This document shows positions 2,406 through 64,000 of a DNA stretch of 64,000 nt, in pieces. A program made the translations under genes and the position numbers. Position 1 is the first letter of the stretch. Every line of letters starts with the position of its first letter. Source of the stretch: Chiloscyllium plagiosum (lineage: Eukaryota); the NCBI RefSeq assembly GCF_004010195.1, contig NC_057751.1, positions 9,183,611-9,247,610 of the forward strand, in the 5' to 3' direction. Below the pieces are notes generated by a model. That model did no database searches. It had not been told where the DNA came from and worked only from the letters and a program-made list of their open reading frames with translations.

Positions 2406-2500
2406 CTTTCCTGAAGAAGGGCTTATGCCCGAAACGTCGATTCTCCTTCTCCTTTGATGCTGCCTGACCTGCTGCGCTTTTCCAGCAACACATTTTTATG
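2406..2500 (+). mobile_element. 95 bp PLE terminal mini-insertion with hammerhead core
   Basis: TSD tccag(a/g)tccagc at 2394-2405 and 2501-2512. Same family as the 3' end of the PLE at 3365-4175. Confidence 0.85.
2411..2438 (+). ncRNA. Minimal hammerhead ribozyme core
   Basis: CUGAAGA-A-GGGC(UUAU)GCCC-GAAACGUC. Confidence 0.75.
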
Positions 2501-4016
2501 TCCAGGTCCAGCACAGCCACTCCACGTCCTTCGAGACATTACCTCCTAATAAATGATAGAGGGTGCTGACTGAGAGAGGACCCATGGACCAAAGTACTCT
2601 CCTCTTCACATCAGACTACATTAACCATTAATGTAGTCTTTTTCTGTATAAAGTCCCGAATCTGAAAATAACAAAAGAGGTCCCTCCTAGGTAGTTCATA
2701 TTTCTGGCTCAGCTGTTCAAAAGACATCAAAACCTCCCCCTCAAATAAGTCTCCCAGACAGGAAACCCCTCGAGGTTCCCAGAGCCTAAAGCCAGGATCC
2801 ATCGATCCTGGCCAGAATCCTGGCATTCCTACTATGGGAGTAAAAGGGGAAGTTTTTCATGAATTCCCCTCACATCATTCTCCATGCTTTAACCGTGTTA
2901 AGGCCAATGGGGTTTCTGCAATGTTCCTTAACAGTCCTCATCTTGTCCATAAACACCAAATTGATGAGGGGGCATTTTGCCTCGGAGGCCTCCATGTCCA
3001 GCAAAATTGACCTCAGGTCCTGGCAAGCCCAATCAGCCACATAGGATAATAGGGAACTTAATTGATATTTCTTAAAATCTGGAAGGTCCACACCCCCCAT
3101 CCCCTGCGGAAGCTACAATTTAGCAAACCTAATAAGAGGCTGCCTATGATGCCAGATAAAAGAACCGAGCCAATTGTTAAGCCTCTGTAGTGCTTGCCTT
3201 GGCAGCATCAAAGGGAGCATTCGCATGGGATATAAAAAAGGAGGAAGAACATTCATTATGACCAGAGCTATTCTACCCAACCAGGATATCAGAAGATCCT
3301 CCCAGCGCTGAAGGTCTTGTCTTATCTTCTCTCGCTACTGTACAAAATTAGCCTTATATAATTGTTCCACCACAGAACACGCCAGATGGCCTCCTTGTTT
3401 AGAGACCGCAATTTCCCTTCCCACGTGCTTAAAGATGCCCTCCAACGCATCTCATCCACATCCTGCACCTCCGTCCTCAGACCCCACCCCTCCAACCGTA
3501 ACAAGGACAGAACGCCCCTGGTGCTCACCTTCCAACCAACCTTCGCATAAACCAAATCAGCCGCCAACATTTCTGCCACCTCCAAAAAGACCCCACCACC
3601 AGGGATATATTTCCCTCCCCACCCCTTTCCGCCTTCCGCAAAAACCGTTCCCTCCGTGACTACATGTCAGGTCCACACCCCCCTACAATGCACCCTCCCA
3701 TCCGGCACCTTCCCCTGCCACCATAGGAATTGCAAAACCTGCGCCCACACCTCCTCCCTCACCTCCATCCAAGGCCCTAAAGGAGCCTTCCACGTCCATC
3801 AAAGTTTTACCTGCACATCCACCAATATCATTTATTGTATCCGTTGCTCCCAATGCGGTCTCCTCTACATTGGGGAGACTGGACGCCTCCTAGCAGAGCG
3901 CTTTAGGGAACATCTCTGGGACATCCACACCAATCAACCACACCGCCCTATGGCCCAATATTTCAACTCCCCCTCCCACTCTGCCGAGGACATGGAGGTC
4001 CTGGGCCTCCTTCACC

Positions 4017-4038
4017 NNNNNNNNNNNNNNNNNNNNNN
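4017..4038. other. Assembly gap (Ns); further gaps at 8917-8949 and 10396-10561
   Basis: Runs of n. Confidence 1.
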
Positions 4039-4094
4039 CACCCCCACCCTCCTCTCACTTATCTCTCCACCCTTCAGGCTCTCTGCCTGTATTC

Positions 4095-4122
4095 CTGATG
4101 AAGGGCTTTTGCCCGAAACGTC
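4095..4122 (+). ncRNA. Minimal hammerhead ribozyme core at PLE 3' end
   Basis: CUGAUGA-A-GGGC(UUUU)GCCC-GAAACGUC. Confidence 0.8.
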
Positions 4123-4301
4123 GATTTTACTGCTGCCTGAACTGCTGTGCTTTTCCAGCACCACTCTAATCTAGACTTATATAATTGATCGAAGGATGAG
4201 GTGATTAAAAATGCCTAAGTACGGGAAACCTCCCTGTGAGCACCTGAAAGGGAATCAGATTCCGCCCCCAAGATCCGGTACTCGAACAAGACCCTCCACA
4301 G

Positions 4302-4639
4302 GCGATTTACACCGGTGACTGAGTCATTGGCAGAAGCCTTCTGGAGGGACCCCAATATAACTACTCTGGAGGTAGGGTCAAGAGGGCATTATATCACCCT
4401 TTATGCAGATGATGTTCTTCTTTTTCTAACTGACCTGACAATATCTGTACCCCAAAGAACCAAAGAAATGAATGACTTGTATTAAATGGGGTACAGATAT
4501 TGTCGGGTTAGTTAGAAAAAGAAGAACGTCATCTGCATAAAGGGTGATATAATGCCCTCCTGACCCTACCTCCAGAGCAGTTATATTGGGGTCCCTCCGG
4601 AAGGCCTCTGCCAATGACTCAATCACCAATGTAAATCGC
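4302..4639. repeat. Inverted duplication (~152 bp arms) inside L1 RT
   Basis: 4302-4453 is the reverse complement of 4487-4639, with ~10 mismatches. Confidence 0.93.
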
Positions 4640-7114
4640 AACAGTGAAAGGGGGCACCGTTGTCGGCTGCCTCTACCAATACTAAAATTGTCAGACCTTA
4701 TACCATTTGTGAGAACTGCTGCCTTAGAGTCACTATATAACACTGCCACTCACCTGGCAAAGACCCCTCCAAGAACAAACCGTTCCAGGGAGACAACAAA
4801 GCCTGGAGTCGACCCTTGCTGACATACCTGAACCATATTCAGTACTCTTCTAATGTCATTAGAAGATCTGCGACCCCCAATAAAACCTGTCTGGTCCTCC
4901 TTTACAATGGAGGGCAAGAACTTGTTCAACCTCAATGCCAGCATCGTCGACAAAATTTTAAAATCCACATTTAATAGCAATATGGGCCTGTAAAAGTACA
5001 ATCCTCTGGGGCTTTCCCTCTCTTGATAAGGGAAATACTTGCTTCGCTCAGAGAGGATGGGAGGCAGTCCTGACTGTACGAATATTTGTACGTATCCAAC
5101 ACCTGCCCAGCCAGCACGTTTATAAACTCCTTATAAAACTTGCTCTGAAATCTATCTGGGCCAGGCACTTTACCGCTCTGGAGCTGCCTCACCGCCTCAT
5201 GTATCTCTTGGATTGTCAGAGGGACATTCAAAAGAGATGCCTGCTCTGACGTTACACTTGGGACGGCCAAGGTCTTAAAAAAGGACTCCATCTTCGCCAA
5301 TCTGTCCTCATAGTCCTCCAACTGGTACAACTCAGAGTAGAATTTCCTGAATGCTGCGTTAATCTTTTTGGAATCGCAAGTGAGAGTACCAGCACACTCT
5401 CTCATAGATTGGGGGCATTCTTTTTTCTGGCCAGATACACTCGATATCTACCCGGTTTATCACCATACTCAAATAATCTCTGTTTCACAAAGGTGATCTC
5501 CCTCTTTGCTGTGTGGGTGGGCGTAGCATTCAGAGCAGCCCTAAGGGCTGTAATCCTCTGCAACTTGGTTACAGATGGTCTGTCTAAGTATGCTGTCTCA
5601 GCTGTCTTCAGCCGGGCCTCACGCATGTGCTGCAGCTCTCCCCTCTGCTGCATCTGGGTCGCTGCATCAGTCTTGGCAGTCTCCCAGAGCATCGAGGATT
5701 ACTGGTTGTACCGAATTAATGTCCCAAAAAGTTTTAAATTCCTGCAAAAAATACTCAGTAAACTTGCTATCCTTCGCGAATCTGTCTCATTACCATTGGC
5801 CTTGACCTCCATGTACACTGCCACATTATCACAAATGGCCATGTTCCCTATTCTACACGACAGCACCAAATTCAAAAAGGCTGATGGAGCAAAAAACATG
5901 TCAATTGAGTGTAGCACTTGTGTGGGTTAGAGAAAAAGGTGAAGTCCCTACCCTCAGGGTGAAGACATCTCCACACATCCACCAACCCCAGCTCCCTGCT
6001 CAGATCCACCAGTTGCCTGCATTGTGGGATATACCTGTGAAACCCCTATGCATCCTCTCTCCCCTGGGGTCCATAAGATGATTAATTGTATGACGTCCCC
6101 CTATAATTGTATGACGTGCCCCAAAGTCCATCAACCTGGAAAGCGCATCCATTAAAAATTTGAGGGGGTGTGCCACGGGCAACATTCAAGATCCCATACT
6201 CTTCTCCATGCATTAAACCTTTAAGGATCGTAAACCGCCCATATTCATCCTTAATTTGGTCTAACAGCTGAAATGGGAGATTCTTCTGGATGAGTATAGC
6301 AATTCCTCTCCTTTTAGAATGAAAGGATAAGAAAAACACCCAGCCAAATCCTCCCTGCTGTAACTTTAAGCACTCCTTATCAGTTAGATGTGTTTCTTGG
6401 AGCAAGGCTACATAGACCCGGTCTTTTCTAAGGCTTGAAAGTATCTCTTTCCTCTTAATCAGTGAATGACCCCCCTTAACGTTGCAGGTGCACCATTTAA
6501 ATGAACTATTAGCCATATCTATCTGAAACAGCACATGACCCCCATCCCCCACCACGCCGAAGGAGGGACACCGCTCATAACGCGCCGAGTGAAAACAGTA
6601 ACCATGTGTGAACTTGAGAATACAACAAAAACTACCAAATCAAAACTTTTAACAACTACTGCTACAATGAACCAACATGTAAAACAAATAAGAAGAGACT
6701 TTCCCCCTTGCCCACAGGGGGCACTCACACGACCCACTCATCCCTTCATGGCTCCTTCTAGCTGAAACTGCACCCCACACCAAGGCAAAACAAAGTTTAA
6801 AAAAGTTACATGCATCTTACAACAAGAAATTTAAGAGTGTGCACCCAGCCCGTCCCATCCATACTTTGACCCTACGCAATCCTGATAAAAAAACACCCCC
6901 CCGTCCTCCCCAAATCTTTCCCCCCCATCTCATATCAAGAATGTGAAATGAAAGTAAATGACAGAAAAACAAAGGATAATGGAAGGGGGTAAAGAAAGAA
7001 GAGAGAAAGAGAAAAAGGGGACCCCCACATATTAAGAGAACAAAACCAAGTAAACCAGGCATACCACAGAGAAAACAAAGTGAACACGATTGTCCATATT
7101 ATTTGAGGAAGCCA

Positions 7115-8841
7115 GTCTATTTTCAGGTGCCCAGGAAGTCCTTTTCCCTTTTCCAATGAGTCAAAATTAAACACGGACCCTCCGTGGCTGAAATGTATTA
7201 CTGCCGGGTATCTTACATAGTATCTTTCCGATAGGAAGACCAGAATTGCACGCAATATTCCAACAGTGACCTAACCAATGTCCTGTACAGCTGCAACGTG
7301 ACCTCACAACTCCTGTACTCAATACTCTGACCAATAAAGGAAGGCATACCAAAGGCCTTCTTCACTATCATATCTACCTGAGGCTCCACTTTCAAGGAGC
7401 TATGAACCTGCACTCCAAGGTCTCTTTGTTCAGCAACACTCCCTAGGACCTTACCATTCAGTATATAAGTCTTGCTAAGATTTGCTTTCCCAAAATGCAG
7501 CATCTCACATTTATCTAAATTAAACTCCATCTGCTACTTCTCAGCCCATTGGCCCATCTGATTAAGATCCTGTTGTAATCTGAGGTTACCTTCTTCGTTG
7601 TTCACTGCACCCCCAAATTTGGAGTTATCTGCAAACTTACTTGTGAAACTTGAAAGAGTTCAGAAAAGATTTACAAGGATGTTGCCAGGGTTTGAGGATT
7701 TGGGCTACAGGGAGAGGTTGAATAGGCTAGGACTGTTTTCCCGGGAGTGTCAGAGGCTGAGGGGTGACCTTATAGAGGTTAATAAAATCATCAGGGGCCT
7801 GGATAGGATAAATAAACAAAGTCTTTTCCCTGGGGTGGGGGTGTCCAGAACTAGAGGGCATAGGTTTAGGGTGAGAGGGGAAAGATATGAGAGAGACCTA
7901 AAAGCAACTTTTTCATGCAGAGGGTGGTACGTGTCTGGAATGAGCTACCATAGGAAGTGGTGGAAGCTAAGTACAATTGCAACATTTAAAAGGCATCTGG
8001 ATGATTATACAAATAGGAAGAGTTTAGAGGGATGTGAGCCAAGTGCTGGCAGGTGGGACAAGATTGGATTGGGATATCTGGTCAGCAGGAACAAGTTGGA
8101 CCAAAGGGTCTGTTTCCATGCTATACATCTCTATGACTCTGTGACTCACTGAATATTCAAGTTCCTCAGCCACCTTACTATCTCATCAAAAGCCTTCCTC
8201 TTGTGGATCGCGGCCACAGAAAAGTCTTGGAAAAACATAATTCTTGATCCTTTGTACAGCAGAGCCTGGGGATCCTTCCCTAATGCTCTAGAAGCTTCCA
8301 ACACCATTTTCTTATCTCTATAGTGCCGGAGTCGCACTGGGACCAGGTGAGCCTGCTCGACCTGCCCTGACTTCCAGTCCATTGCTCCAAAAAAAAACCA
8401 ACTAGCTGACCTTCTTCCTCCAGCTCTGGCAGCCCGATTAAGCAGATGTTCTTCCGACGGCCTTGATTTTTGAGGTCATCGACCTGCTCCACCAAGGCCT
8501 GTACTGGCCTTTCCAGGGCCTGGACCCAGCCCTCTGAAGATTCCACTGCTGTTTCAGAAGTCGCAGTCCACTGCTCCATCTCCACAATGCGTTCCTGAGA
8601 CGCTGGATCTCCTGGTCATGCTTCTGTCGCATGACCGAGATCAGTTCCAGCCTGGTCCGGGCTTCCTACATCGCTGAATCAATCTTCTCTCGGAGTTTCA
8701 TGAATCCCGAGACCAGGCTCTGCTCCACAGAAAGGTCCTCAGGAAGTTCGTGAAGGCCGATGCTGCAGCTGCAGGCATGTTCATAGCTGCAAGGGAGTGC
8801 CCTGCTTGTTGCAATCCTCGCTGTCCTTTTCCCTTGGTCAT
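7115..8841 (-). pseudogene. L1 ORF1 (Transposase_22-like RNA-binding protein), frameshifted and interrupted by a CR1
   Basis: Coiled-coil followed by RRKNICLIGLPE, VRLRHYRDKKMVLEASR, IMFFQDFS and NIQ|YYVRYPA motifs in ORFs 8280-8585, 8146-8382 and 6935-7255. Probable start MTKGKG at 8841. Confidence 0.85.
7222..8147 (+). mobile_element. 5'-truncated CR1 with inverted 5' part, inserted in L1 ORF1
   Basis: 7222-7641 is CR1 RT on the minus strand. 7641-8147 is the CR1 3' end on the plus strand, ending in ctatgactctgtgactc. Confidence 0.92.
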
Positions 8842-9227
8842 CTTGCTTGCTCAATTAAACTGACACACAGCAATTCTGGGGACTAAAACGACTGATTTTT
8901 ACTACAATAGGTAAGANNNNNNNNNNNNNNNNNNNNNNNNNNNNNNNNNGGGAAATGCACCACTCCACCTGGGTTCTGGTGCAGAGCTCAGCACGGCAGA
9001 CCTACTGGATTGCCGGCATTTTGGATCTCTAATTTCTTTCCTTCCTAATTAATTATTTAAATCAGGGGCCTTCAGGTAGCAAAGCATCAAGTGATCTCTG
9101 CATAGCACTGATTTTGCAATTTAAACTCACAATCTTCAAATGTCCAAAAAAGACTTTCAATTGTTTCCTTCAGCAGTCAGGAAATTGGGTTTTCTTGGAT
9201 CATCACAGTAGACATGGGCACCACGGT

Positions 9228-10182: not shown

Positions 10183-10740
10183 AGCCGAAAATGTGTTGCT
10201 GGAAAAGTGCAGCAGGTCATGCAGCATCCAAGGAACAGGAGAATCGACGTTTCGGGCATAAACCCTTCTTCAGGAATGAGGAAAGTGTGTCCAGCAGGCT
10301 AAGATAAAAGGTAGGGAGGAGGGACTTAGGGGAGGGGCGTTGGAAATGCGATAGGTGGAAGGAGGTCAAGGTGAGGGTGATAGGCCGGAGTGGGGNNNNN
10401 NNNNNNNNNNNNNNNNNNNNNNNNNNNNNNNNNNNNNNNNNNNNNNNNNNNNNNNNNNNNNNNNNNNNNNNNNNNNNNNNNNNNNNNNNNNNNNNNNNNN
10501 NNNNNNNNNNNNNNNNNNNNNNNNNNNNNNNNNNNNNNNNNNNNNNNNNNNNNNNNNNNNNGATGCAATAAATGATGTGTGTGGAGGTGCAGGTGAATTT
10601 GTGGCAGATATGGAAGTATCCCTTGGGGCCTTGGAGGGAAGTAAGGGGAGAGGTGTGGGCGCAAGTTTTACATTTCTTGCGGTTGCAGGGGAAGGTGCCG
10701 GGATTGGAGGTTGGGTTGGTGGGGGGTGTGGACCTGACGA
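10183..10740 (-). mobile_element. Penelope-like element fragment (gap-containing) with hammerhead core at 10246-10273
   Basis: PGTFPCNRKKCKTCAHTS...FTCTSTHIIYCI; reverse complement of the end reads ctgaagaagggtttatgcccgaaacgtc. Confidence 0.88.
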
Positions 10741-10849
10741 CAGTTGTTAACAGGCAGAAGGTCTTTGTCGTCGATAAATGGTCATGAGTCCACATGTTAC
10801 TTGCTTTCAAACAAGCAGTAAATTAGGACTGCATATTATATGGGTTATA

Positions 10850-11625: not shown

Positions 11626-11928
11626 TGTCTTAGTAATGTGGCCGACAACAAGATGCGTTGCAGGATCTGATGACAAGTGTCAGGGGAACTATCTCAACAT
11701 TGGGAACATCTTGCACCATCTTTTATGTTTTTCACAAATAGTATGGCAAACTTCTTCTGAGGCAGTAGTGAGATGCCAAATGACTGAGACCAATGCTTGT
11801 TAGGCTCCTTGTTAAAGGCATAACATGCCTCATTCGTATTCAGCATCTCACACTACCAAACTTGCCAAACAAGCTGGACATCAGGAAACCTCAACAAAGA
11901 AACAAGAGTAAGCACTTGCACAAATCCA

Positions 11929-12146
11929 GAGTCAAAAAGTGTGGCATGGAAAAGCACAGCGGGTCAGGCAGCATCCAATGAACAGGACAATCGACGTTTT
12001 GAGTATAAGCTCTTCATCAGGAATGAAGAGCTTATTCTCAAAATGTCAACTCTCCTACTCCTCAGATGCTGCCTGACCAGCTGTGGTTTTCCAGCACCAC
12101 ACATTTTGACTCTGATCTCTATCATCTGCCGTCCTCACTTGCTCCT
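11929..12146. mobile_element. Fold-back pair of PLE termini with decayed hammerhead cores
   Basis: Inverted arms around ~12021. Degenerate TSD acttgcacaaatcca (11914-11928) / acttgcatagattca (12147-12161). Confidence 0.8.
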
Positions 12147-18145: not shown

Positions 18146-18239
18146 TCGATCTAGCTCTTTTATCTTGTCTTTCAGGCTGGTTTTAAGAGCTGTTGGAAAT
18201 ATCCTTGGCACGTATTGAATTGGTCTTGCACTTGTATTT

Positions 18240-22584: not shown

Positions 22585-22764
22585 AAAACAGAAAATGCTG
22601 GAGATCACAGTGGGTCAGGTCTAGATGACTCTCAGCTCTGATGAAGGTCATCTCGATTCAAAACGTTGGCTTCTTTCTCTCCATGGATGCTGCCTGACCC
22701 GCTGTGATCTCCAGCATTTTTTGTTTTCAATTCAGATTCCAGCATCTGCAGTAATTTGCTCTGA
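22585..22764. mobile_element. Fold-back PLE terminal insertion (older family), decayed hammerhead at 22638-22667
   Basis: aaaatgctggagatcacag..ggtcagg is inverted against cctgacccgctgtgatctccagcatttt; degenerate TSD at 22571-22584 / 22765-22778. Confidence 0.7.
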
Positions 22765-22804
22765 CATTGCCGATCTTACCAGGAATAGGCTATTTTATCC
22801 CTAG

Positions 22805-22903
22805 TCTAGATTAGAGTGGTGCTGGAAAAGCACAGCAGGTCAGGCAGCATCCGAGGAGCAGGAAAATCGACGTTTCGGGCAAAAACCCTTCATCATGAAT
22901 GGC
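22805..22903 (-). mobile_element. 99 bp PLE terminal mini-insertion with hammerhead core (22869-22896)
   Basis: Perfect 15 bp TSD ctattttatccctag at 22790-22804 and 22904-22918. Confidence 0.9.
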
Positions 22904-23244: not shown

Positions 23245-23311
23245 CATTCCGGATGAAGGTTTATGCCCGAAACGTCGACTCTGTTGCTGTTCAGACGCTG
23301 CCTGACCTGCA
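23245..23311 (+). mobile_element. Truncated PLE terminus with mutated hammerhead core (23250-23276)
   Basis: cggatga-a-ggtttatgccc-gaaacgtc...gctgcctgacctgc. Confidence 0.75.
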
Positions 23312-24347: not shown

Positions 24348-25820
24348 GTGCTTTTCATGATTTATATGAATGATTTAGATGTGAACACAGGAGGTATTGT
24401 TAGTAAGTTTGCAGATGACACCAAAATTGGAGGTGGAGTGGACAGCGAAGAAGGTTACGTCAGAGTACAATGGGATCTTGATCAGATGGGCCAATGGGCT
24501 GAGGAGTGGCAGGTGGAGCTTAATTTAGATAAATGTGAGGTGCTGCATTTTGGAAAGGCAAATCAGGGCAGGACTTATACACTTAATGGTAAGGTGCTAG
24601 GGAGTGTTGCTGAACAAAGAGACCTTGGGTGCAGGTTCATAGTTCCTTGAAAGTGGAGTCTCAGGTCGATAGGACAGTGAAGTAGGCGTTTAGTATGCTT
24701 TTCTTTATTGGTCAGAGCATTGAATAGAGGAGTTGGGAGGTCATGTTGCACCTGTACAGGACATTGATGAGGCCACTTTTGGAATAGTGTGTGCTATTCT
24801 GGTCTCCCTGTTAGAGAAAGGATGCTGTGAAACTTGAAAGGTTCAAAGTTTGTGAGAAGATTTGTAGCTTGGGTGCCGTTGTTGTGGTTCTATTTGCCGA
24901 GCTGGGAATTTGTGTTGCAGACATTTCGTCCCCCGTCTAGGTGACATCCTCACTGTTTGGGAGCCTCCTGTGAAGCGCTTCTGTGTTGTTTCCTGTGGCA
25001 TTTATAGTGGTTTGTCTCTGCTGCTTCTGGTTGTCAGTTTCAGCTGTCCGCCGCAGTGGCTGGTATATTGGGTCCAGGTCGATGTGTTTGTTATAGAAGC
25101 ATGGCACTCATCCACAGATTCTATCAACAAACACATCGACCTGGACCCAATATACCAGCCACTGCAGCAGACAGCTGGAACTGACAACCGGAAGCAGCAG
25201 AGACAAACCACTATAAATGCCGGAGGAAACAACACAGAAGCGCTTCACAGGAGGCTCCCAAGCAGTGAGGATGTCACCTAGACAGGGGACGAAACGTCTG
25301 CAACACAAATTCCCAGCTCGACGAACAGAGCCACAACAAACTTGAAAGGGTTCAAAAAAGATTTACAAGGGTGTTGCAGGAGTTGGAGGTTTTGAGCTAT
25401 AGGAAGAGGTTGAATAGGCCAGGGCTGTTTTCCCTGGAGCGTCAGAGGCTAAGGGGGGACCTTAGAGAGGTTTATAAAATCATGAGGGACATGGATAGAG
25501 TAAATAGACAAGTTGGGGGAGTCCAGAACTAGAGGGCATAAGTTTAGGGTGAGAGGGGAAAGATTTAAAGGGACCTAAGGAGCAATTGTTTCACGTCGAG
25601 GGTGATGCATGTATGGAATAAGCTGCCAGAGGAAGTGGTGGAGGTTGGTACAATTACAATATTTAAAAGGCATCCAGATAGGTACATGAATAGGAAGGGT
25701 TTACAGGGACATGGGCCAAATGCTAGCAAATGGGACTAGATTAATTTAACATTTCTGGTCAGCATGGATGAGTTGGACTGAAGGGTCTGTTTCCATGCTG
25801 TGCATCTCTCTGACTCCATG
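24348..25820 (+). mobile_element. CR1 3' half interrupted by a PLE fold-back
   Basis: YMNDLD, KFADDTKIGG, KCEVLHFGK; 3' tail ggactgaagggtctgtttcc...tgactccatgac. Confidence 0.92.
24848..25337. mobile_element. Fold-back Penelope-like insertion (second PLE family; ~210 bp arms) with hammerhead cores at 24920-24953 (-) and 25265-25298 (+)
   Basis: Encodes EAWHSSTDSINKHIDLDPIYQPL, resembling the C-terminus of PLE GIY-YIG domains. TSD aaacttgaaag(g)gttcaaa at 24830-24847 and 25338-25356. Confidence 0.88.
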
Positions 25821-27519: not shown

Positions 27520-30500
27520 TGTTTCTCTTAAGAGGTCATTGTCCACATTGGAACCAACGACTTAGGAAGGGAAACGGTTGAGATTCTGAAGGGAGATTAC
27601 AGAGATTTAGGCAGAAATTTAAAAAGGAGGTCCTCAAGAGTAGTAATATCTGGATTATTCCCGGTGCTACGAGCTAGTGAGGCAGGAATAGGAGGATAGA
27701 GCAGATAAATGCATGGCTAAGGAGCCGGTGTATGGGAGAAGGATTCACATTTTTGGACCATTGGAATCTCTTTTGGGGTAGAAGCGACCTGTACAAGAAG
27801 GATGGATTGCACTGAAATTGAAAGGGAACTAATATACTGAAAGGGAAATTTGCTAGAGTTGCTTGGGAGGATTTAAACTAGTAAGGTTGGCGGGGGGGGG
27901 GGGGTTGTGGGTATGGGACCCAGGGAGATAGTGAGGAAAGAGATCAATCTGAGACTAGTACAGTTGAGAACAGACGCAAACCAAACAGTCAGGGCCGACA
28001 GGTACAAGGTAGGACTAATAAATTAAACTGCATTTATTTCAATGCTAGGGGCCTAACAGGGAAAGGCAGATGAACTCAGGGCATGGTTAGGAACATGGGA
28101 CTGGGATATCAAAGCAGTTACAGAAACATGGCTCAGGGATGGGCAGGACTGTCAACTTAATGTTCCAGGATACAAATGCTCGAGGAAGGTTAGAAAGGGA
28201 GGCAAGAGAGGAGGGGAGGGTGACATTTTTGATCAGGGATAGCATTACAGCTGTGCTGAGGGAGGATATTCCCGGAAATACATCCAGAGAAGTTATTTGG
28301 GTGGAACTGAGAAATAAGAAAGGGATGATAACCTTATTGGGATTATATTATAGACCCCCTAGTAGTCAGAGGGGGAAACAAACTTGTAAGGAGATCTCAG
28401 CTATCTGTAAGAATAATAGGGCAGTTATGGTAGGGGATTTTAACTTTCCAAACATAGACTGGGACTGCCATAGTGTTAACGGTTTAAATGAAAAGGAATT
28501 TGTTAAGTGTGTACAAGACAATTTTTTCATTCAGTATGTGGATGTACCTACTAGAGAAGGTGGGAAATAAGGCAGGGCAGGTGACTGAGGGGTCAGTGGG
28601 GGAGCACTTTGGGGCCAGCGACCATAATTGTATTAGATTTAAAATAATGATGGAAAAGGATAGACCAGATCTAAAAGTTGAAGTTCTAAATTGAAGAAAG
28701 GCCAATTTTGACGGTATTAGACAAGAACTTTCGAAAGCTGATTGGGGGTAGATGTTCACAGGTAAAGGGATGGTTGGAAAATGGGAAGCCTTCAGAAATG
28801 AGATAACAAGAATCCAGAGAAAGTGTATTCCTGTCAAGGTGAAAGGAAAGGCTGGTAGGTATAGGGAATGCTGGATGACTAAAGAAAGTGAGGGTTTGGT
28901 TAAGAAAAAGAAGGAAGCAGATGTAAGGTCTAGACTGGATAGATCGAGAGAATCCTTAGAAGAGTATAAAGGCAGTAGGAGTATACTTAAGAAGGAAATC
29001 AGGAGAGCAAGAAGGGGACATGAGATAGCTTTGGCAAATAGAATTAAGGAGAATCCGAAGAATTTTTACAAATACATTAAGGACAAAAGGGTAACTGGGG
29101 AGAGAATAGGGCCCCTCAAAGATCAGCAAGGCGGCCTTTGTGTGGAGCCGCAGAAAATGGGGGAGATACTAAATGAGTATTTTGCGTCAGTATTTACAGT
29201 GGAAAAGGATATGGAAGATATCGACTGTAGGGAAATAGATGGTGACAGCTTCAAAATGTCCACATTACAGAGGAGGAAGAGCTGGATGTCTTGAAATGGG
29301 TAATGGTGGATAAATCTCCAGGACTTGAACTCTGTGGGAAGCTAGAGAAGTGATTGCAGGGCCTCTTGCTGAGATATTTGTATCATCGATAGTCACAGGT
29401 GAGGTGTTGGTAGACTGGAAGTTGGCTAACATGGTGCCATTGTTTAAGAAGGGCGGTAAAGACAAGCCAGGGAATTTTAGACCAGTGAGCCTGATGTCGG
29501 TGGTGGGCAAGTTGTTGGAGGGAATCCTAAGGGACAGGATGTACATGTATTCGGAAAGACAAGGACTGATTAAGGATAGTCAACATGGCTTTATGCATGG
29601 GAAATCATGTCTCACAAACTTGATTGAGTTTTTTGAAGAAGTAACAAAGAGGATTGATGAGGGCAGAGCCATAGATGTGATCTATATGGACTTCAGTAAG
29701 GCGTTCAACAAGGTTCCCCATGGGAGACTGATAGCAAGGTTAGATCTCACGGAATACAGGGAGAACTCGCCATTTGGATACAGAACTGGCTCAAAGGTAG
29801 AAGACAGAGGATGGTGGTGGAGGATTGTTTTTCAGGCTGGAGGCCTGTGACCAGTGGAGTGCCACAAGGATCAGTGCTGGGTCCTCTTTTTGTCATTTAC
29901 ACAAATGATTTTGATGCGAGCATAAGAGGTACAGTTAGTAAGTTTGCAGATGACACCAAAATTGGAAGTGTAGTGGACAGTGAAGAGGGTTACCTCAGAT
30001 TACAACAGGGTCTTGACCAGATGGGCCAATGGGCTGAGAAGTGGCAGATGGAGTTTAATTCAGATAAATGCGAGGTGCTGCATTTTGGGAAAGCAAATCT
30101 TAGCAGAACTTATACGCTTTATGGTAAGGTCCTCGGGAGTGTTGCTGAACAAAGAGACCTTGGAGTGCAGGTTCATGCTCCTTGAAAGTGGAGTCGCAGG
30201 TAGATAGGATAGTGAGGAAGGCGTTTGGTATGCTTTCCTTTATTGGTCAGAGTGTTGAGTACAGGAGTTGGGAGGTCATGTTGCGGCTGTACAGGACATC
30301 GGTTAGGCCACTGTTGGAATATCATATGCAATTCTGGTCTCCTTCCTGTCGGAAAGATGTTGTGAAACTTGAAAGGGTTCAGAAAAGATTTAAAAGGATG
30401 TTGTCAGGGTTGGAGGATTTGAGCTATGGGGAGAGGCTGAACTGGCTCGGACTACTTTCCCTGGAGTGTCGGAGGCTGAGGTTTACAAAATTATGAGGGT

Positions 30501-33725: not shown

Positions 33726-33729
33726 TCAC

Positions 33730-43521: not shown

Positions 43522-44419
43522 CTCAATGTTGTATGTGTGGTTTGGGCTTGAAGTGATGGAATTTTGTCCATCTTTTCTTGGAAGTTATAAATCACTACCC
43601 TTCATTATTGCTCGGTGTCCAGATAGATGGTAAGGAAAATAAAGTCTACTTACATTTGGGAATTTAAAGATATTTGCTGGGTTTATGGGGAATGTTAGGA
43701 GGTGTTTAGATTTTAAAGTGTTGGGAAACAGGTTTCCGGGGCCTCAACATTGCGAACAATGGATAATCTTCTCAGACTGTGGTATTGAGATGTCACATCT
43801 TTCTTAGGATGTGTGAACACTAGGATGTGTGGCAACAACTTATGGAACACAGGGAATAAAATCTAGTAGCCCGATGCCCGAGTGAACAAAATCCTTCAGG
43901 CAGAGAAAAAAAACAGCCCAGATTTGTGCTGAGATTTGGGTTTCACTGCTGGACAAATACCCACCTTCCCCACCACTCACATAGTCCAAGGAATTAAGCA
44001 ATGAAACAAACTCCTTCCAGTTTCCTGAATGTAACATTATGACCAGGCAATGTTCCCCAATTTATTCTAGTTCCAGATGGGAAGCCATAAATAGTCAAGC
44101 TCCTGGCAATGGTTCCATAACTTGTTGCCACACATCCTAGTGTTCACACATCCTAAGAAAGATGTGACATCTCAATACCACAGTCTGAGAAGATTATCCA
44201 TTGTTCGCAATGTTGAGGCCCCGGAAACCTGTTTCCCAACACTTTAAAATCTAAACACCTCCTAACATTCCCCATAAACCCAGCAAATATCTTTAAATTC
44301 CCAAATGTAAGTAGACTTTATTTTCCTTACCATCTATCTGGACACCGAGCAATAATGAAGGGTAGTGATTTATAACTTCCAAGAAAAGATGGACAAAATT
44401 CCACACATACAACATTGAG
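43522..44419. repeat. Near-perfect inverted duplication, 292 bp core arms, 263 bp spacer
   Basis: 43557-43848 is the reverse complement of 44112-44403 with one mismatch by eye. Confidence 0.97.
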
Positions 44420-45741: not shown

Positions 45742-45961
45742 CTGAAAATGTGTTGCTGGAAAAGCGCAGCAGGTCAGGCAGCATCCAGGGAACAGGAGAA
45801 TCGACGTTTCGGGCATAAGCCCTTCTTCTTCATTCCTGAACAAGGGCTTATGCCCGAAACGTCGATTCTCCTGTTCCCTGGATGCTGCCTGACCTGCTGC
45901 GCTTTTCCAGCAACACATTTTCAGCTCTGATCTCCAGCATCTGCAGACCTCACGCTCTCCC
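45742..45961. mobile_element. Fold-back pair of PLE termini with hammerhead cores (45803-45828 minus, partial; 45836-45863 plus)
   Basis: ~85 bp near-perfect arms; TSD cta(ca/tg)ttgttttatg at 45727-45741 and 45962-45976. Confidence 0.92.
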
Positions 45962-46861
45962 CTATGTTGTTTTATGACTGGAGAAAAATCCTCCAGATAT
46001 ACAAATGAAGTTTTTTTTGTTCTATAGCACTGTACTCACTGTGCATTTGGAGTAATAATTCTTTTTTATTATTATGAAGCCCTGAGGGCATCAATAATTC
46101 CCATATCTAGTTATTTGAGTCAGTTGGACTTCAAGTCAGGCCGAAGTGTTAATGAACATACCACCTTGGTTTATTGGTAACTTTTTGTGAGTCTAAATCA
46201 ATTCAAAAGACCCACAGGAACATTAAAGCTTGAAGCAAGTAGGCAAGATCCGTGCAAAAAAACGATGTTAACATTTCAGTTATGGATACTTTGCTGAAAA
46301 TATTTTGAAATTAAACACTGATTCCTCTGTTTTTCCATGGTACTGCACATCACCTGAATATTTCTATCCATTCTCAGTTTATGTTTCAAAGTTCCAACAC
46401 TTATGACTACTTCCAATAATTTTGCTTTTTGTAAAACAAGGCTGACTTGCTTTCAAAATTATGAACTCCAATCTCAAACCTGACAGTACATACTGTGGCT
46501 GGATACCATTTCTTCGGGTCCTGTTCCACGTTAGGGCAAGTCTCAACGGAAGACGTGAGAAGATATTACAGCTTCTACATTTCGATTGTGCAGCATCAGA
46601 AGTGATCCTCTATGGGCAGCAATAATTATCTAGTCTGCAGAAGGCCTCTGGTTAATGTGTAATTACACGTTCAGTACTGTGGCCTGTAGGCCAAGAGAAA
46701 TTGAAACTAATCTTCACTGGTGAATCGCTCACACTTAGCACTGCTAGAATGGGACAACACTCATTCATTGTAAAGGTTGGAAGTGCTTATGTATTGTTTT
46801 CTTTACTCTCCTCAATATCTTACTCTACTGTTCACTTTACTGCATTCAAGCAGGTCTGAAT

Positions 46862-56043: not shown

Positions 56044-56244
56044 TAGCAGGTTTTGAGAAGATTTGTAGCTCAGGTTGAGGTTCTGGATGTAGGTTTGCTT
56101 GCTGAGCTGGAAGGTTCATTTTCAGACATTTTGTCACCATACAGGGTAACAGCTTCGTCCGGAGGCCCACTGAAGATGTCACCTAATATGGTGACGAAAC
56201 GTCTGAAAATGAACCTTCCAGCTCAGCGAGCAAACCTACATCCA
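56044..56244. mobile_element. Fold-back PLE terminal insertion (third family) inside a SINE
   Basis: Perfect 13 bp TSD gacatttaagagt at 56031-56043 and 56245-56257; inverted arms; shares gagaagatttgtagct with the insertion at 24848. Confidence 0.88.
56170..56203 (+). ncRNA. Hammerhead ribozyme core with perfect 6 bp stem II
   Basis: CA-CUGAAGA-U-GUCACC(UAAUAU)GGUGAC-GAAACGUC-UG. Confidence 0.82.
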
Positions 56245-56689: not shown

Positions 56690-57905
56690 CCTGGACAAAA
56701 AGTACAAGGGAGAGTAATAGGTTTAAAGGCCAAGACAGCCCCTGCACCTGATGGGTTGCATGCTTGTATTTGAAAAGAAATAGTGGCTGAAATAGTGGAT
56801 GTATTGGTTGTAATTTTCCAAGAATGCTTGTACTCCAGAAAAGTCCCAGAGGACTGGAAAACTGCCAACATAACACTTATATTTAGAAAGGAAAGGAGAC
56901 AAACAACAGTTAAGTATAGACCAGTTAGTTTAACATCTACTCTTGGGAAAATGGTCGTCAATTATAAAGCATGAATAGCAGAGCATTTAGAAATACATAA
57001 TTTGATCAGGAAAAGTCAGCATGAAGGAGAAATTGTGTTTAATTTATTATAATTCTGTGAAGAGGTCACAAGCAAGATAAAGGGGAAATTGAGGATGTAG
57101 TCCATTTCGATTTACAGAAGGTGTTCAATAAGATACCGCAAGTTCAGATTCTTGATTAGAGCCGATGTTGTTGGAAATAGTGTATGCGCATAGATCCCAG
57201 GTATGGAAGACGTTCTTAGGAGGAAACATTATGTTGGCAGGAAAATGAACCTTACTGAAACATTGTAAGATACTTATAGGGCTTTTTCCTATTCATTCAG
57301 GGATATAGGCATCACTGGTTAATCCAGCATTTTCACCCATCCCTAACTGGCAGATTGTAGTTAAGAGTCAACCACTTTGCATCTGCAGTCACATGTACAC
57401 CAGAGCAGATACTAGTGATCTACAGGGTTTTATCTGACACTGAAAAACAATATTATGGTCATTGTTAGACTCTTAATTCCAGATTCCGTTGAATTTCACC
57501 ATCTCCTAAGGCAGGATTCCTAGGTCCTTGGAATATTACCTGTGTCTGGATTAATTGTCAAACGATACCACCAAGCCATCACCTCCCCGGTATAACAGTG
57601 TAGATGCAGAGATGGTGTTTCCCCTTGTGGGACAGTTTTGGATGAGAAGGCATAATCTCAGAGTGAGAGGATGTCTATTTTAAAGAGGGATGGAGAAATT
57701 TTCTCCTATGAGTAGGTACTGAATCTGTAGAATTCTTTAGAACCTAGGGTAGTCGAGGCTGGGTCATGATGTATATTCAAGGCTGTGACAGAGCGATTTC
57801 TATTCATGGGAAATAGGTAATGGGCAGGCAAGTGGAGTCGAGCATTTTAAAATCAGCCATGACCTCAGTAAATGTTAGAGTCGACTCACTGGGCCGAATG
57901 ATGTC
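56690..57905 (+). mobile_element. Decayed CR1 RT and 3' end, interrupted by a SINE at ~57290-57588
   Basis: KVPEDWKTANITLIFRK...YRPVSLTS; DLQKVFNKIP. Confidence 0.8.
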
Positions 57906-58914
57906 ATTACGCCACAGCCAGCTAAGTTCAGTTTCATGATTCTGCTGATTCAGCACCTTCCTCACAAATACAAGCCACAGTCTTCATTGTTTAGAGTTCC
58001 AGGGGGGAAACCTCTCAGCTTGGGTCCAAGGTTACATTGTTGGCAAAAGTGAAAATTGCTGCTAATTTGGGAACTTGAGACAAAAAAATTCAGGCTCCCT
58101 TCCCTGAATCTGGAAAGATATTTCCTGCCCACTGATTGTTTTGCTGTGTTGAAATTCCATGTTGTTCACCTCGGAAAATCCTAACCGTACATACATTTCT
58201 AACAAAGAAATTAGACTTAACAGAAATTGCGGTCCTTTTTCTGTCTGTCTTCTAATTCATCACTATAACTCTCCAGAGGAATACATTTCAGCATGGCTAT
58301 CTGAATTCCTCAAATGAAAGGAGCAAAGGCTCCTCTGATAGTCAGTCTTTATCAATGGGTGTGGTGATGAGTTATTAATACACAATGTGATATTGATCTA
58401 TCAGTGAATGAACAGATCTCAGCTGGCATGGTGGTCTCGATGTTACAATTACGCTTAACCTGGCTTCAGAATTGGGACATCAGCTGGGATGCTGCTCCTG
58501 TTTTTATCAGGTGAAAGTATGTGGGTCTTTGGACTGCCAATTAAACTGTACACTGATGGAAAATAGGGGCAAAGGGAACAAAAACTGCAAGGGAAAAAGT
58601 AATATTTGCTTTCAAAGTCACAGTGGTGCTTGTATTTGACTGAATTTGCCTGTCTTTTCTATTTCCAACCCTCTAGCTTCTTTTATCTTCAGTGATCCTG
58701 AGGTTAGTTTTATGGCTAAAATTTCCTAATGTCCCCAACTGCTTTTTTTCTATTTTGTTCCTTCATCATGGCTGTTATTGCTATATTCAGTCCCCAGGAG
58801 ACTCAGCAATGCAGACACAACAGCACACTCTAACATGACTTGTCCCTCACTGACTCAATTTAGGCAAAGCTGTCATTCAGCTTCAAATGTAGTCAGAAAC
58901 AAAAACAAAATCGA

Positions 58915-59012
58915 ATCCAAGGTAGACAAGCAGGAGGCTTGAAGAACACAGCATGCCAGGCAGCATCAGGTGGTGGACAAGTAATGTTTCGTGTGTGACC
59001 CTTCTTCAGAAT
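58915..59012 (-). mobile_element. ~95 bp PLE terminus with hammerhead-like core (58983-59009)
   Basis: Reverse complement ctgaaga-a-gggtcacacac-gaaacatt...gatgctgcctggcatgctgtgttctt. Confidence 0.7.
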
Positions 59013-59229
59013 GACTCACATCATGAACTGAATGTTGCAAAGTTTAAACTTAAACACGATTCAAACTGCCTCACTGAATTTACCTGAAATTCTTTATTAC
59101 CCATAAGATTGTAACTGCATAGCACAATGATATACTAGGGTACAGAGTAAGCAAAAGTACAATTGTAACCACATATTATAATATATGCAGTATTTCTCAA
59201 CAGATTACTAATTACAATGCATTTGGCTG

Positions 59230-60565
59230 ATAGGATCCCATGGATTCTTGGATAAATATTGAATTGGATATTTATTGGATAAATTTCACAGTTCATTCCA
59301 TTTTCGTGCCTTTTCTCCATTACCCCAATTGAGTTTGTGATTAAAAATCTATTTCAACCTTGAATATACTTGATAACTCAGACTCAACAACCCCCTCCTT
59401 GGTCAACATTTCCACAGATTCAGGACGCTTTGCAAAAAGAAGTTCCTTCTCATCAGTCTTACGTCGGTGACCAACCCCTCAGAAATTATGCCCTCGGGTT
59501 CTAGATTCTCCTTGAAGGGGAAACAATCTATCCTATCAAGTCCTGAAACATCTTCTATGATTCGAAAAGGTAACATCTCACGCTACAGAACTCCGATTTC
59601 TCCATGCCTGGGATTAACCTGGACAATCTTCTCTTGATTGCATTGGACACCAATATATTTTTCTTTAGATAAGGTGACCAAAACTGTTCACACTATCCTA
59701 AGTATGGTTTACACCTTGTCTAGTTTTCACAAAATTTCCTTATTTTTATAATCTATTTCCTTGGAAATAAAGACCAATATTCCATTTGCCTGCTCTATGA
59801 CGTAATGAACTTGGAAGCTAACATTTCCCAATTTATGCACAAGACCCCCAAATCCCTGTGCTGCTGATTTCTGCAGCCGGTTTTTCCCTTTAACTAATGT
59901 TCAGTTCCCCTATTCCTCCTGTCAACCTTTTTCACCGTATTATATTCCAAATGCCAAGATTTTGCCAACTTAGTTAATCTATCTGTATCACTCTGTCGAT
60001 TCTGTTAACCTCACAAGTTGCCTTGCAATTACATTTGAATTATCTGCCAAGTTGGCAACAGTACATGCAGTTCTCTACTCCAAGTCATGAGTCTATGTTG
60101 TAAATAATGGCGACCACAGCACTCAAGCCTGTGACACACCATGAGTTGCAGTTTGCCATTCTGGAAATATCCTTACCCCAAATCTGTGCCTTCTGTCAGT
60201 TAGCCAATCCTCTTCCCATGCTCATATACTATCTACAATGCAATGGGCTCTAGTCTTTTCAAGTCATATACCTTAATGAAACATCATGAAAACACAAATA
60301 TATTACATTCGCTGGTGATACATGATTTGCCCTGCTTTTTACCTCTTCAAAAGAATTCTAATAAACTTGATAAGAATGATTTCCCCTTCAGGAAGTTTGT
60401 TGACTTTGCTTGGTTATATCGTGCATTTCTGTTACATACTTTATAATAGATTATAACGCATTTCAATTACAGATCTCAAACTAACTGGTATATAGTTACT
60501 TGGCTTTTGTCTGCTTCCCTTTTTGAATAAAAGTGTTACTTTCATAGTTTTCAATGTTGGGACAT
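59230..60565 (-). mobile_element. Old decayed CR1
   Basis: Reverse complement contains NYIPVSL, GKSFLSSLLEFFEEV and EQFWSPYL remnants. Confidence 0.75.
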
Positions 60566-61545
60566 TGCAGGAAGGCAGTGTTTGCCAACTGGTTACTACG
60601 CATCTATTCATTACGAATGCATGGTTCTAAGAACTGACATTATCGCGTGCACTTTACATGTGACATCATGCACAAGTGTATTATTGCTTGTGCATAGAGA
60701 AGTGTATGCACAAGTGTGAACTAGGCTTCAGTGGTGGGAGGAGATGCCATATTACAGGATGGGGTAGGGGGAAAACCCAGAGGTGAGACAGGAAGAGGGC
60801 CAGGCAAATGCAGCTGTCCTTGCTGTCCATCTTGATATTACTTTCATGTTTACCCTCAAAATTCATTTCCCCCTCTTACTTGTTTCTTTGGTCATCTTTT
60901 GTGGGTTTTAAAATGTTCCCAATCATCTAGCTTCCACAGATCCTTCTCACACTCAATGCTTAATCTTCTATTTTTTAAAATATTACTCTCCATTTGTTTT
61001 TTGTTTCTCTATGCCAATAAATATCTTTAGAAGTCAGTGTTTGCCTGGTTAGCCCTTCCCCCATTCTCTGTTCAACTTTTTCCAGTGTGCCTTTACTTTT
61101 TCGTATCTCATTTTATTCCCCCAAAACCTTAGGCACACAGAGCAGAGATACCTGCTGGTACAACCATATGGCAGTCTGGTTGACTGCTGGCTTTGGTGTG
61201 CCCCAGATAAATGCAACTGACAAACTCCCGGGTAACAAAGTAATTGATGCCTGTGCTCACAGCTTCCCGCTCAGGTCCAAATCAGAGACAAAACATTGAC
61301 ACGACCATAACAGATCTCATCGTATAGTATTGTATTAGCCAGACTTGTTCCTGAATCATTTGGTCAGTGTTGCTGAATTCAGCCACTTTGATTTTTTGTT
61401 CAATCTGAGCTCTGAGGCAATAATTTCCAAGTCTTTGATATGCTTTACGTTTCATTCTGTTATCATTGTTATATGGGTTAGTGTTTCTTTTACCATCTGA
61501 CCTTAAACTCCTTTTCCAGAACCTCAAGGCCATGGAATCCCTTAC

Positions 61546-61645
61546 CTTGGCTCAACGATCGTTTCCTCTTCCAAATGTCATCAGCAGTTTCAAACATAAT
61601 ATCATCAGCTTTGGTGCAACTAGACTGAAAGGAGTCATAGAAGAC
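61546..61645 (-). other. Candidate 100 nt coding exon, product unidentified
   Basis: Acceptor ccttactttacag and donor AAG|gtaagg; only one open frame, VFYDSFQSSCTKADDIMFETADDIWKRKRSLSQ. Confidence 0.35.
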
Positions 61646-62245
61646 CTGTAAAGTAAGGTTCAGGATAAATATCCTGCTTCAACATGATTTTTCATACATT
61701 AGCAAAGACGTTTTCTGAAACAAAATTTGACTGCTCTGTTACCTCTTCACTATTTGTCACATTTGCCATTTTGGAATACCAGGAGCTGGGAAATCCTACA
61801 ACACACTGCAGTAAACCATATTTCATCAAAATGGTCCTCATTGACACAGATTAGATCAAACACTTTGTTCAGAGTAAATATATTAGTGTCCCACGAAGGG
61901 ACTTGATGAAAATCCACTTTGGGTGATTGTCATCATTTGCCTCACAAGAATTATGTTATGTAAAGCAGATGAAGTCATGTGAAATATCAATTCATACAAA
62001 ATAATTTCACGCAACCGTGTTCAGACAGCTACTAACCATTCAAAGCACAGTCAGAAAATATCAAACATGGATTATGAAATAGGTCAGAGGAGAATAAAAA
62101 CAGTGAGCAACTACATCGACAATACGCAGAAACCTTGAAAGAGAAAAAAGTAGATCTATCGAATTATAGTGAAAATCTTTAAATTAGAATTTTAATCCCT
62201 TTTGTAATGTATAAAATATAGCAACAAATTTATGGACAGCAAGCA

Positions 62246-62340
62246 GTCCTGATGAAGACTTAAGTCGAAAAGTCAACTCTCTTGCTTCTCAGATGCTGCC
62301 GTACATGCTGTGCTTTTACCAGTGCTACACTTATTATTGG
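62246..62340 (+). mobile_element. ~90 bp PLE terminus with hammerhead core (62249-62274)
   Basis: CUGAUGA-A-GAC(UUAA)GUC-GAAAAGUC followed by gatgctgcc...tgctgtgctttt. Confidence 0.75.
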
Positions 62341-63167
62341 TGCTGATAGCCACAGACTGAAATGGTAGACTTCTCGCCAAACAACCAACATCTGTTGTTC
62401 AATAACATACAAAAAGCCCAGTTGTAGGCAAAACCTTGCCATCAAAGACCTGCTTTCCCGCCAGAAATGGCAATTACTGGCCCTTTGAGAAGTGAAGTCT
62501 CAAGTTTGCTCATCTTCTAGCTTTAACACTGATCCTCCAGCCCTGCCTTTTCCACAATTTGCATTGTACATAATTGGTAAAAGATTTATATATTCCTACA
62601 TGTCATGATTAGAAAGCTTTTGCATCCACAGAATGATAATAAGGAGTGTTGTGAAGAATGAATAAGCTTGCATGTAGTGCATAAACACTACAGAGGAAGG
62701 TAATCTGACAACAGAAATCTCAGTTCAATGCTTGTTCGTGCCAGGTTTTTTGATGTACATGATATTTATTTTGTGCTGTGCTTGAATTTATTTTTGCCAG
62801 CACAATAAGATATCCTTTTTGTTTAGAATATAAAGGTGAGAAATTATTGATGGTGATAATAGCAAATCAATACTTAACATGTCTAAGTGAGACTCATGTT
62901 GTCACTCCATTGAATTTATTTCAAAGGTGTGCAAGAACAGAGTTAAATGTATTTGCTGTCTTGAAGCAAATCTTTTTTATGTTCCAGATTTCAAAACAAA
63001 TGTTGGAAAAGCATTGCAGATCAATCTATATCTAAAATTAAATGGTACAAATAGCAGATTGTTTGAGTTTGAATGTTTTTCAGAGCCCAGAGGAAAAATA
63101 GAAAATGCTTGAAATGCTCATTGGTATAAAATTCTGAAATGTGGTCAGTGCTATCATGTAGCACACA

Positions 63168-64000
63168 GAGATGACACCAAAATCGGAGGTGTAGTGGACA
63201 GTTAAGGAGGTTACCTCAGAGTTCCACAGGATCTTGATCAGAAGGGGTTTAGATTAGAGTGGTGCTGGAAAAGCACAGCAGGTCAGGCAGCATCCGAGGA
63301 GCAGGAGAATCAATGTTTCGGGCAAAAGCCCTTCATCAGGATCCTGATGAAGGGCTTTTATCCGAAATGTCAATTTTCCTGCTCCTCGAATGCTGTCTGA
63401 CCTGCTGTGCTTTTCCAGCACCACTCTGATCTAAACTCTGGTTTCCAGCATCTGCAGTCCTCACTTTTGCCTTCTTGATCAGAAGGGCCAATGGGCCGAG
63501 GAGTGGCAGATGGAGTTTAATGTAGATAAACATGAGGTGTTGCATTTTGGAAAAGCAAATCAGGGTAGGACTTATACATTAATGGTAAGGTCCTAGGGAA
63601 TGTTGCTGAACAAATACATCTTGGAGAGCAGGTTCATTGTTTTTTGAAAGTGGAGTTGCAGGTGGACAGGATAGTGAAGGCAGCATCTGATATGCTTTCC
63701 CTTACTGGTCAGAGCAGCGAGTATAAGAGTTGGAAGGTCATGTTGTGACTGTGTAGGACATTAGTTAGACCACTTTTTGAATAGTGTGCACAATTCTAGT
63801 CTCACTCCTATTGGAAGGATGGTGAAAAACTTGAAAGGATCCAGAAAAGATTTAAAAGGATGTTGCCAGGAGTGAAAGGTTTGAACAAAGGAAGAGGCTG
63901 AATAGGCTGGGGCTGTTTTTCTTGTAGTGTTGGAAGCTGAGGTTTATAAAATCATGAGGGACATGGATAGGGTAATAGACAAGGTCTTTTCTCTGGGGTG
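63168..64000 (+). mobile_element. CR1 3' half (runs off the window) interrupted by a PLE fold-back
   Basis: DDTKIGG, WAEEWQMEFN, LERIQKRFKRMLPG. Confidence 0.9.
63247..63472. mobile_element. Spacer-less palindromic pair of PLE termini with two back-to-back hammerhead cores
   Basis: Centre cttcatcaggatcctgatgaag; perfect 15 bp TSD tcttgatcagaaggg at 63232-63246 and 63473-63487. Confidence 0.93.

Follow-up and report, generated by a model that had tools for sequence, protein, structure and literature searches.

What are the hammerhead-like motifs that recur throughout a 64,000 nt stretch of DNA from the cartilaginous fish Chiloscyllium plagiosum (here called the window), how did they get there, and can they be expected to cleave RNA? 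The original prediction, made from the letters of the window, held that 18 cores of minimal hammerhead ribozymes are carried here by several lineages of Penelope-like elements (PLEs). What the window holds is mostly decayed end pieces of PLEs, each headed by a stripped-down hammerhead motif. The motifs are very probably fragments of the pseudo-long terminal repeats (pLTRs) of endonuclease-bearing PLEs with the already known minimal type I hammerhead, and the stubs and palindromes formed by many of them dead-on-arrival products of mostly uncleaved RNA. Genome-wide counts given below refer to 3.56 Gb.

A recognisable or decayed core is present at all 18 places. The minus-strand sites had been given by their low-coordinate 3' end; the corresponding C3 residues are found at 10273, 12020, 22896, 24953, 45830, 56158, 59009, and 63339. 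A strict test, asking for the full core, 3 bp or more in helix II, complementarity between positions 15.2 and 16.2, and 2 bp or more in helix I, is passed by four sites (2411+, 4095+, 10273-, and 56170+), compared to a chance expectation of 0.01 (mean of 300 dinucleotide shuffles of the window, maximum one). Four further sites (59009-, 62249+, 63339-, and 63344+) have a damaged helix and intact core letters, bringing those with all letters of the core CUGANGA ... GAAANNUH to eight of 18, and the remaining ten have a core substitution or have lost the 5' half. Most window copies are catalytically dead by sequence. The helix II pairs listed in the prediction are present in the sequence, even if GAG/CUC and GAC/GUC had been taken from decayed copies. 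Ten of the cores are arms of five head-to-head insertions, so that the 18 cores correspond to about 13 insertions. A common downstream block unites 14 cores in one Neptune-type group, while the other four probably belong to Poseidon-type families. The sites are as follows.

2411-2438, plus strand: intact minimal hammerhead core of Neptune-type subfamily A1, in a solo pLTR stub of about 90 nt that begins about 5 nt upstream.
4095-4122, plus strand: intact core of subfamily A2, within the 3' pLTR of the open reading frame (ORF) remnant at 3365-4015.
10246-10273, minus strand: intact core of subfamily A1, ending a truncated PLE on its 3' side; one of the helix II pairs is G-U.
11927-12114, both strands: head-to-head pLTR pair; 12020- has G12A, 12023+ has lost its 5' half and has G12A.
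22638-22667, plus strand: core decayed by G12A, from a divergent family of Neptune-type whose helix I has 4 bp; a short inverted arm lies at 22585-22619.
22805-22903, minus strand: solo pLTR stub flanked by 15-bp target-site duplications; its core, 22896-, has C3A.
23250-23276, plus strand: decayed core with U4G and a helix II that lacks one base.
24842-25338, both strands: Poseidon-type head-to-head insertion with an 11-bp target-site duplication; cores 24953- and 25265+ both have C3G.
45742-45966, both strands: young head-to-head A1 unit with a one-sided tail and a 10-bp target-site duplication; 45830- has lost its 5' end at the junction, 45836+ has G8C.
56044-56244, both strands: Poseidon-type head-to-head unit with a 13-bp target-site duplication; core 56158- is decayed.
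56170-56203, plus strand: intact core of the Poseidon-type unit 56044-56244; helix II has 6 bp, and the ATG at A9 is in frame.
58983-59009, minus strand: all core letters present, with damage to helix II and to the helix III palindrome; part of a divergent Neptune-type stub.
62249-62274, plus strand: core letters kept, helix II of 3 bp, palindrome broken (15.2 C to A).
63247-63472, both strands: head-to-head unit with tail and a 15-bp target-site duplication; 63339- and 63344+ show CpG-type decay.

The motifs might be chance matches to a short consensus, and loose patterns do produce such matches: 13 of the 21 hits of a loose core search are not family members, and a loose pattern for the U3-A8 variant of the core gives 3,851 hits in the genome, not above the 3,903 in the control. 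For the family members, chance is refuted to near certainty by the four intact cores against 0.01 expected, by the genome counts presented below, and by a covariance model. This model, built from 12 natural copies of the Neptune-type motif, recovers 13 of the 14 Neptune-type sites, the 14th overlapping its partner arm, and detects no additional site in the window at E<0.1. A scan of the window against Rfam gave no match to any hammerhead family, the microRNA-like hairpin matches it returned below gathering score being caused by the palindromes, and a tandem repeat scan of the window found no retrozyme-like arrays.

The proposed origin from PLEs is supported by GIY-YIG remnants upstream of 4095+, 10273-, and 25265+. 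The first two are Neptune-type.

3365-4015, plus strand: 3' part of the ORF of a Neptune-type PLE, frameshifted, with thumb region, Cys linker, and GIY-YIG endonuclease.
10562-10777, minus strand: remains of a Neptune-type linker and GIY-YIG domain, upstream of core 10273- with a run of N in between.

The remnant at 3365-4015 matches the Pfam GIY-YIG domain with E 3e-4, short of the curated cut-off; it can be aligned with proteins containing both reverse transcriptase (RT) and GIY-YIG domains, and scores 70% in tblastn to protein P0001. Longer relatives combine RT with GIY-YIG, and the relatives with RT share the Cys linker; the closest protein with a name comes from a bamboo shark (89% identity). 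When this endonuclease was used to find other loci, 18 of 19 had a matching core downstream, and the last had only an inverted core at its 5' break. A Cys linker between RT and GIY-YIG is the mark of Neptune-type PLEs (PMC8557442), and by its linker and endonuclease the main (A) family would be Neptune-type. The suggestion of several PLE lineages also holds, since families of Neptune-type and of probable Poseidon-type are present. Within the unit at 24842-25338, C-terminal endonuclease codons are found from 25093; genomic relatives of the 25265 family have a GIY-YIG motif without the Cys linker, and relatives of 56170 adjoin the same kind of sequence. In both of these families a reading frame that continues through the tail starts with the ATG at A9, while in Neptune-type copies an ATG inside the core reaches a stop within about 20 codons. 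Poseidon-type copies (loci L017, L006, and L043, minus strand) further differ from Neptune-type copies in having a TATA-like motif, which precedes C3 by about 50-55 nt. Locus L109 is an apparent recombinant between an A2-type upstream body and an A1-type hammerhead and 3' end. Two candidates for a full-length element were discarded, as L051 contains an assembly gap and L055 consists of two separate copies. Nor are 2411+ and 4095+ the two pLTRs of one element; they belong to different subfamilies and are separated by LINE (long interspersed nuclear element) sequence.

The very large genomic complement that had been anticipated is borne out by the counts as motif matches, though not as demonstrated ribozymes. 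The exact 30-nt motif of the A family occurs 48,069 times in the genome (control 0), and the downstream block, allowing at most one mismatch, 304,104 times (control 0). Core patterns, which do not require helices, gave 138,550 matches when ending in GUC (control 697), 30,851 with GUU or GUA (control 1,687), and 53,086 with an AGCU palindrome (control 417). Together these amount to about 222,000 matches (controls 2,801), with rare double counts, or one per 16 kb, and they are to be regarded as motifs and candidate ribozymes. Judged from pattern counts and the flanks of loci, Neptune-type remnants occur about once per 4.6 kb; the flanks of 29 loci contained 19 further Neptune-type hits (E<0.01) in about 87 kb, the same density as in the window. 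Tight head-to-head junctions number at least 12,072. The family with the AGCU palindrome, also a large one, has GGAGC/GCUCC as helix II and a helix I of 3-5 bp (for instance L008:610+ and L002:743+), and has no copy within the window.

The architecture is that of a minimal type I hammerhead, as predicted: loop 3 is missing and positions 15.2/16.2 are part of a palindrome, which is ACGU in the window families and AGCU in another genomic family. A helix II of 3-7 bp, an extra base after A9, and the G10.1-C11.1 pair are present, and recur in genome listings compiled without regard to pairing. Natural copies of the 25265, 22638, and AGCU families have a helix I of 3-5 bp. Minimal PLE hammerheads have been found to have no activity as monomers and low activity as dimers (PMC4209133), while the Anolis hammerhead cleaves only in the presence of protein (PMC11167929). 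The inserted copies are poorly placed for the cleavage as dimers mentioned in the prediction, since a cis partner is usually missing and paired copies are on opposite strands. Within a head-to-head unit a cis dimer is impossible for this reason, and such units fold into long hairpins of -116 to -181 kcal/mol. Among 100 consecutive exact motifs listed, a single one had a same-strand neighbour within 1 kb.

How the short copies arose can be read from their ends. To this end 100 copies were chosen by the downstream block only, leaving the upstream side unbiased; they are exact block matches on the plus strand of 4.8 Mb of one contig. The 5' boundary of the sense arm was in the element body for 27 copies, at -15 to +8 from C3 for 55, inside the core for 8, at the cut site for 4, downstream of the cut for 3, and at N gaps for 3, and an inverted arm was found directly upstream in 45 copies. 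Of the 70 short copies 34 start at -5 to -1 (p 1e-18 compared to a uniform distribution), and four at the cut (p 0.85). The modal boundary, -4, is where helix I begins, and lies within a putative initiator-like motif. Initiator-like motifs are found in the pLTRs of rotifers (PMC3846280), and Penelope of D. virilis has an internal promoter (PMC2377424). Since the boundaries cluster before the core and few are found at the cut, the templates were mostly uncleaved RNA molecules whose 5' end was fixed. In vitro, the Anolis element PAc has likewise been found to use uncleaved RNA as template, with extension of both strands and two RT start sites (PMC11167929).

The palindromic loci all carry the tail on exactly one arm (29 of 29). 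Their junctions vary between copies, often with part of one arm deleted, and the two arms share subfamily marks. Arms are 95% alike within a unit and 89% alike between units (32 pairs). Target-site duplications of 10-15 bp surround four of the five head-to-head pairs of the window as well as the solo copy 22896-, and an automatic search found clear ones in only about 6 of 27 solo copies. All the marks of insertion by endonuclease-bearing (EN+) PLEs, i.e., inverted pLTR, one-sided tail, and target-site duplication, are present.

From this we infer the following mechanism. In the Neptune-type RNA the 5' end would be fixed, lying about 4 nt before C3 at what is probably the transcription start. 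Reverse transcription would initiate within the RNA some 90-125 nt farther downstream, at one or the other of two sites bounding the tail, and an uncleaved RNA copied to its 5' end would become a stub of 90-130 nt. If both nicked target strands were primed, two complementary DNAs (cDNAs) could join by microhomology near their ends, creating a head-to-head unit with the tail on one side; the one-arm tail and the variable junctions fit such priming of both strands from two RT start sites. Once inserted, copies decay neutrally, fastest at CpG sites including G12 and the palindrome. In the active element weak cleavage would, to judge from the literature, most likely take place after C17, either as a dimer formed via the 4-nt palindrome or with the aid of the element's own protein.

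The head-to-head units might alternatively result from self-priming, the antisense template or nascent cDNA folding back on itself, as proposed for rotifer Penelopes (PMC3846280). The greater likeness of arms within units would fit this, although it is also expected if one template is copied twice. The unit with cores 24953- and 25265+ points the same way, as it has the rare C3G on both arms; C3G is found in 36 of 12,959 genomic matches to the family, and this is the sole pair with both arms affected, so its template may have been a ribozyme-dead RNA, or conversion may have occurred between the arms. However, the tail on one arm in all 29 units fits two RT start sites (PMC11167929), and junctions that vary and often lose part of one arm also speak for priming of both target strands, leaving fold-back as a possible but clearly less probable origin. 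Non-autonomous families amplifying as units, be they retrozymes or similar to short interspersed nuclear elements (SINEs) or miniature inverted-repeat transposable elements (MITEs), would account for the very high copy number, the uniform length, and the target-site duplications. Such families are nevertheless improbable: the junction sequences differ from copy to copy, the stubs have the same sequence as the pLTRs of copies with an ORF, and neither tandem arrays in the window nor, apart from the single case above, same-strand neighbours were found.

Some of the results weigh against the interpretation of the motifs as hammerheads belonging to PLEs and copied in this way. The 100-copy sample is biased to young copies, and no full-length element was recovered among the fetched loci. 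A Pfam search of the Poseidon-type endonuclease pieces gave no GIY-YIG match; their assignment builds on a reading of the motif and on a tblastn identity of about 42% with the Neptune-type domain, with no RT recovered. The contiguous helix I in the main Neptune-type family and in 56170 is 2 bp, followed by U-U and A-U. A descriptor with a 3-bp helix I, the minimum published in 2014, matches one site in the window and one of the 100 sampled copies, compared to 35 of 100 at 2 bp. This minimum is, however, a search setting, and the paper in which it was set accepted a 2-bp helix I for D. virilis (PMC4209133). Minimum-energy folds of the four intact cores, as monomers or dimers, contain helix II but not the hammerhead fold, except that three of the dimer folds pair the palindrome. 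RNAalifold also missed the structure, the input being a mixed-family alignment with misregistered helices. Finally, the ends of molecules in RNA reads do not accumulate at -4 or at the cut site. Reads that reach -4 continue into unrelated flanks, and 82 reads leave the reference at -4, which confirms the genomic boundary and shows neither a start site nor cleavage. The 2,210 reads, in both directions, are from a fragmented poly(A) single-cell library, a poor test of start sites or cleavage.

Selection on the core, which the prediction had assumed for the lineages, is seen only at that level. Several different helix II sequences pair in genome listings obtained without a pairing requirement, helix I covaries between families, the palindrome switches between ACGU and AGCU, and the NUH triplet is kept across families. 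In one family C3-G8 has become U3-A8 (about 60 of 100 listed rows, counted by eye); this variant, with a 5-bp helix II in a Neptune-type family, is found at L007:2850-2910+, L022, and L050. These compensatory changes between families suggest selection in active lineages. Pair counts from a model-fitted alignment, in which 14 cells had changed on both sides compared to 3.3 in shuffles, were given little weight, as that alignment is biased towards the model, consists largely of one subfamily, and includes weak hits. In the inserted copies the core is not especially conserved. Among 74 sampled copies covering the core, 45 of 740 non-CpG core positions (6.1%) deviate from the subfamily majority, as do 17 of 353 nearby flank positions (4.8%) and 83 of 532 CpG positions (15.6%), in an ungapped comparison where a few indels inflate the figures. 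As the core is kept no better than the flank, selection has acted on source elements and not on inserted copies. At L009, near 3040-3086+, helix II has been deleted between short direct repeats.

It could also be that the motif is kept for a role other than cleavage, e.g., as a promoter-proximal element, a start-codon context, or a protein-binding hairpin, and that the ribozyme no longer works. The very short helix I, the mostly uncleaved templates, and the absence of read ends at the cut site are in line with this, as are the findings for Anolis that cleavage is unnecessary for insertion in vitro and that RNA-seq ends are absent at the cut (PMC11167929). It has also been argued that hammerheads may simply parasitise PLEs (PMC8557442). 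However, the changes between families obey the rules of the hammerhead, C3-G8 being replaced by U3-A8 and ACGU by AGCU while NUH is kept, and in Anolis the motif does cleave when protein is present (PMC11167929). A role without cleavage therefore appears unlikely compared to a hammerhead that is weakly active in the source elements. A bolder model, which we regard as doubtful, places the Neptune-type hammerhead first in the transcript, with helix I starting at the initial transcribed base, where cleavage would remove a capped 32-nt leader in a protein-gated self-decapping or circularisation; uncleaved RNA primed on both target strands would then give stubs and palindromes, and cleaved RNA longer copies. 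In this model, with more than 200,000 intact cores that have one palindrome in common, cis or trans cleavage might also strike host transcripts running across two copies on the same strand, and sharks would possess a genome-scale source of RNA cleavage.

Much of what is described here is already in print. Minimal hammerheads of PLEs have been known since Cervera and De la Pena 2014, and the motif class, its location in the pLTR, opposite-strand pairs, the U3-A8 variant, inverted pLTRs, and the tail have all been reported. As in the minimal hammerheads of PLEs (PMC4209133), there is a type I core without loop 3, an extra base after A9, G10.1-C11.1, and a palindromic 15.2/16.2, with many families per genome and mostly solo copies. 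The main family differs in having a 4-bp helix II and 2 contiguous bp in helix I, where those of S. mansoni have 7-8 and 4-5 bp (PMC4209133), and the standard descriptor would miss it. A search of the main text of that paper gave no mention of a shark. With the Poseidon element PAc of Anolis (PMC11167929) the 25265 and 56170 families share a hammerhead at the pLTR-ORF junction and a start codon at the base of helix II, besides the tail from two RT start sites and the uncleaved template; the elements described here are known from genomic fossils alone, and most copies are Neptune-type. Like other EN+ PLEs (PMC3846280, PMC8557442) they have head-to-head inverted pLTRs, a tail of 30-40 bp on one end, target-site duplications, and initiator-like motifs, but here the unit is often just two 90-nt arms joined at the 5' edge of the hammerhead, in the at least 12,072 copies counted above. 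Non-LTR retrozymes are also high-copy type I hammerheads, with 126,247 canonical ones counted in axolotl under a stricter descriptor, but they form head-to-tail arrays and are mostly canonical, whereas the present motifs are minimal and either dispersed or head-to-head (PMC7229834; bioRxiv 10.64898/2026.07.22.740005). One chondrichthyan has been reported to have retrozymes (same sources), and the whale shark is mentioned as having Penelope elements. A literature search for shark hammerheads or Penelope elements, PLE twin priming, and PLE cryo-EM, with subscription literature and Repbase mostly outside its scope, found no description of these families. What is distinctive is the copy number in a cartilaginous fish, and not a new ribozyme class or element type. 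The minimal hammerheads of PLEs are thereby extended to a cartilaginous fish at a density well above published counts, the about 222,000 core matches comparing to about 4,000 in coelacanth and about 9,000 in Xenopus (PMC4209133), with helix-free patterns used here and stricter descriptors there. So large a fossil record makes the role of PLE hammerheads statistically testable, be it through cDNA ends, cleaved templates, the origin of inverted pLTRs, or depletion of intact cores on the sense strand of host introns.

LINE remnants with hits to RT or apurinic endonuclease make up much of the remaining window (103-651-, 4426-6639-, 28091-30185+, and 49184-49798-). A fold-back duplication with 153-nt arms is found at 4302-4639, inside a LINE reverse transcriptase remnant. 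Finally, the segments 43557-43848 and 44112-44403 form a 292-nt inverted repeat that is 100% complementary, with 263 nt between the arms and an extra 19-nt pair just outside; the repeat, 43557-44403, is possibly a young insertion of the DNA-transposon type.

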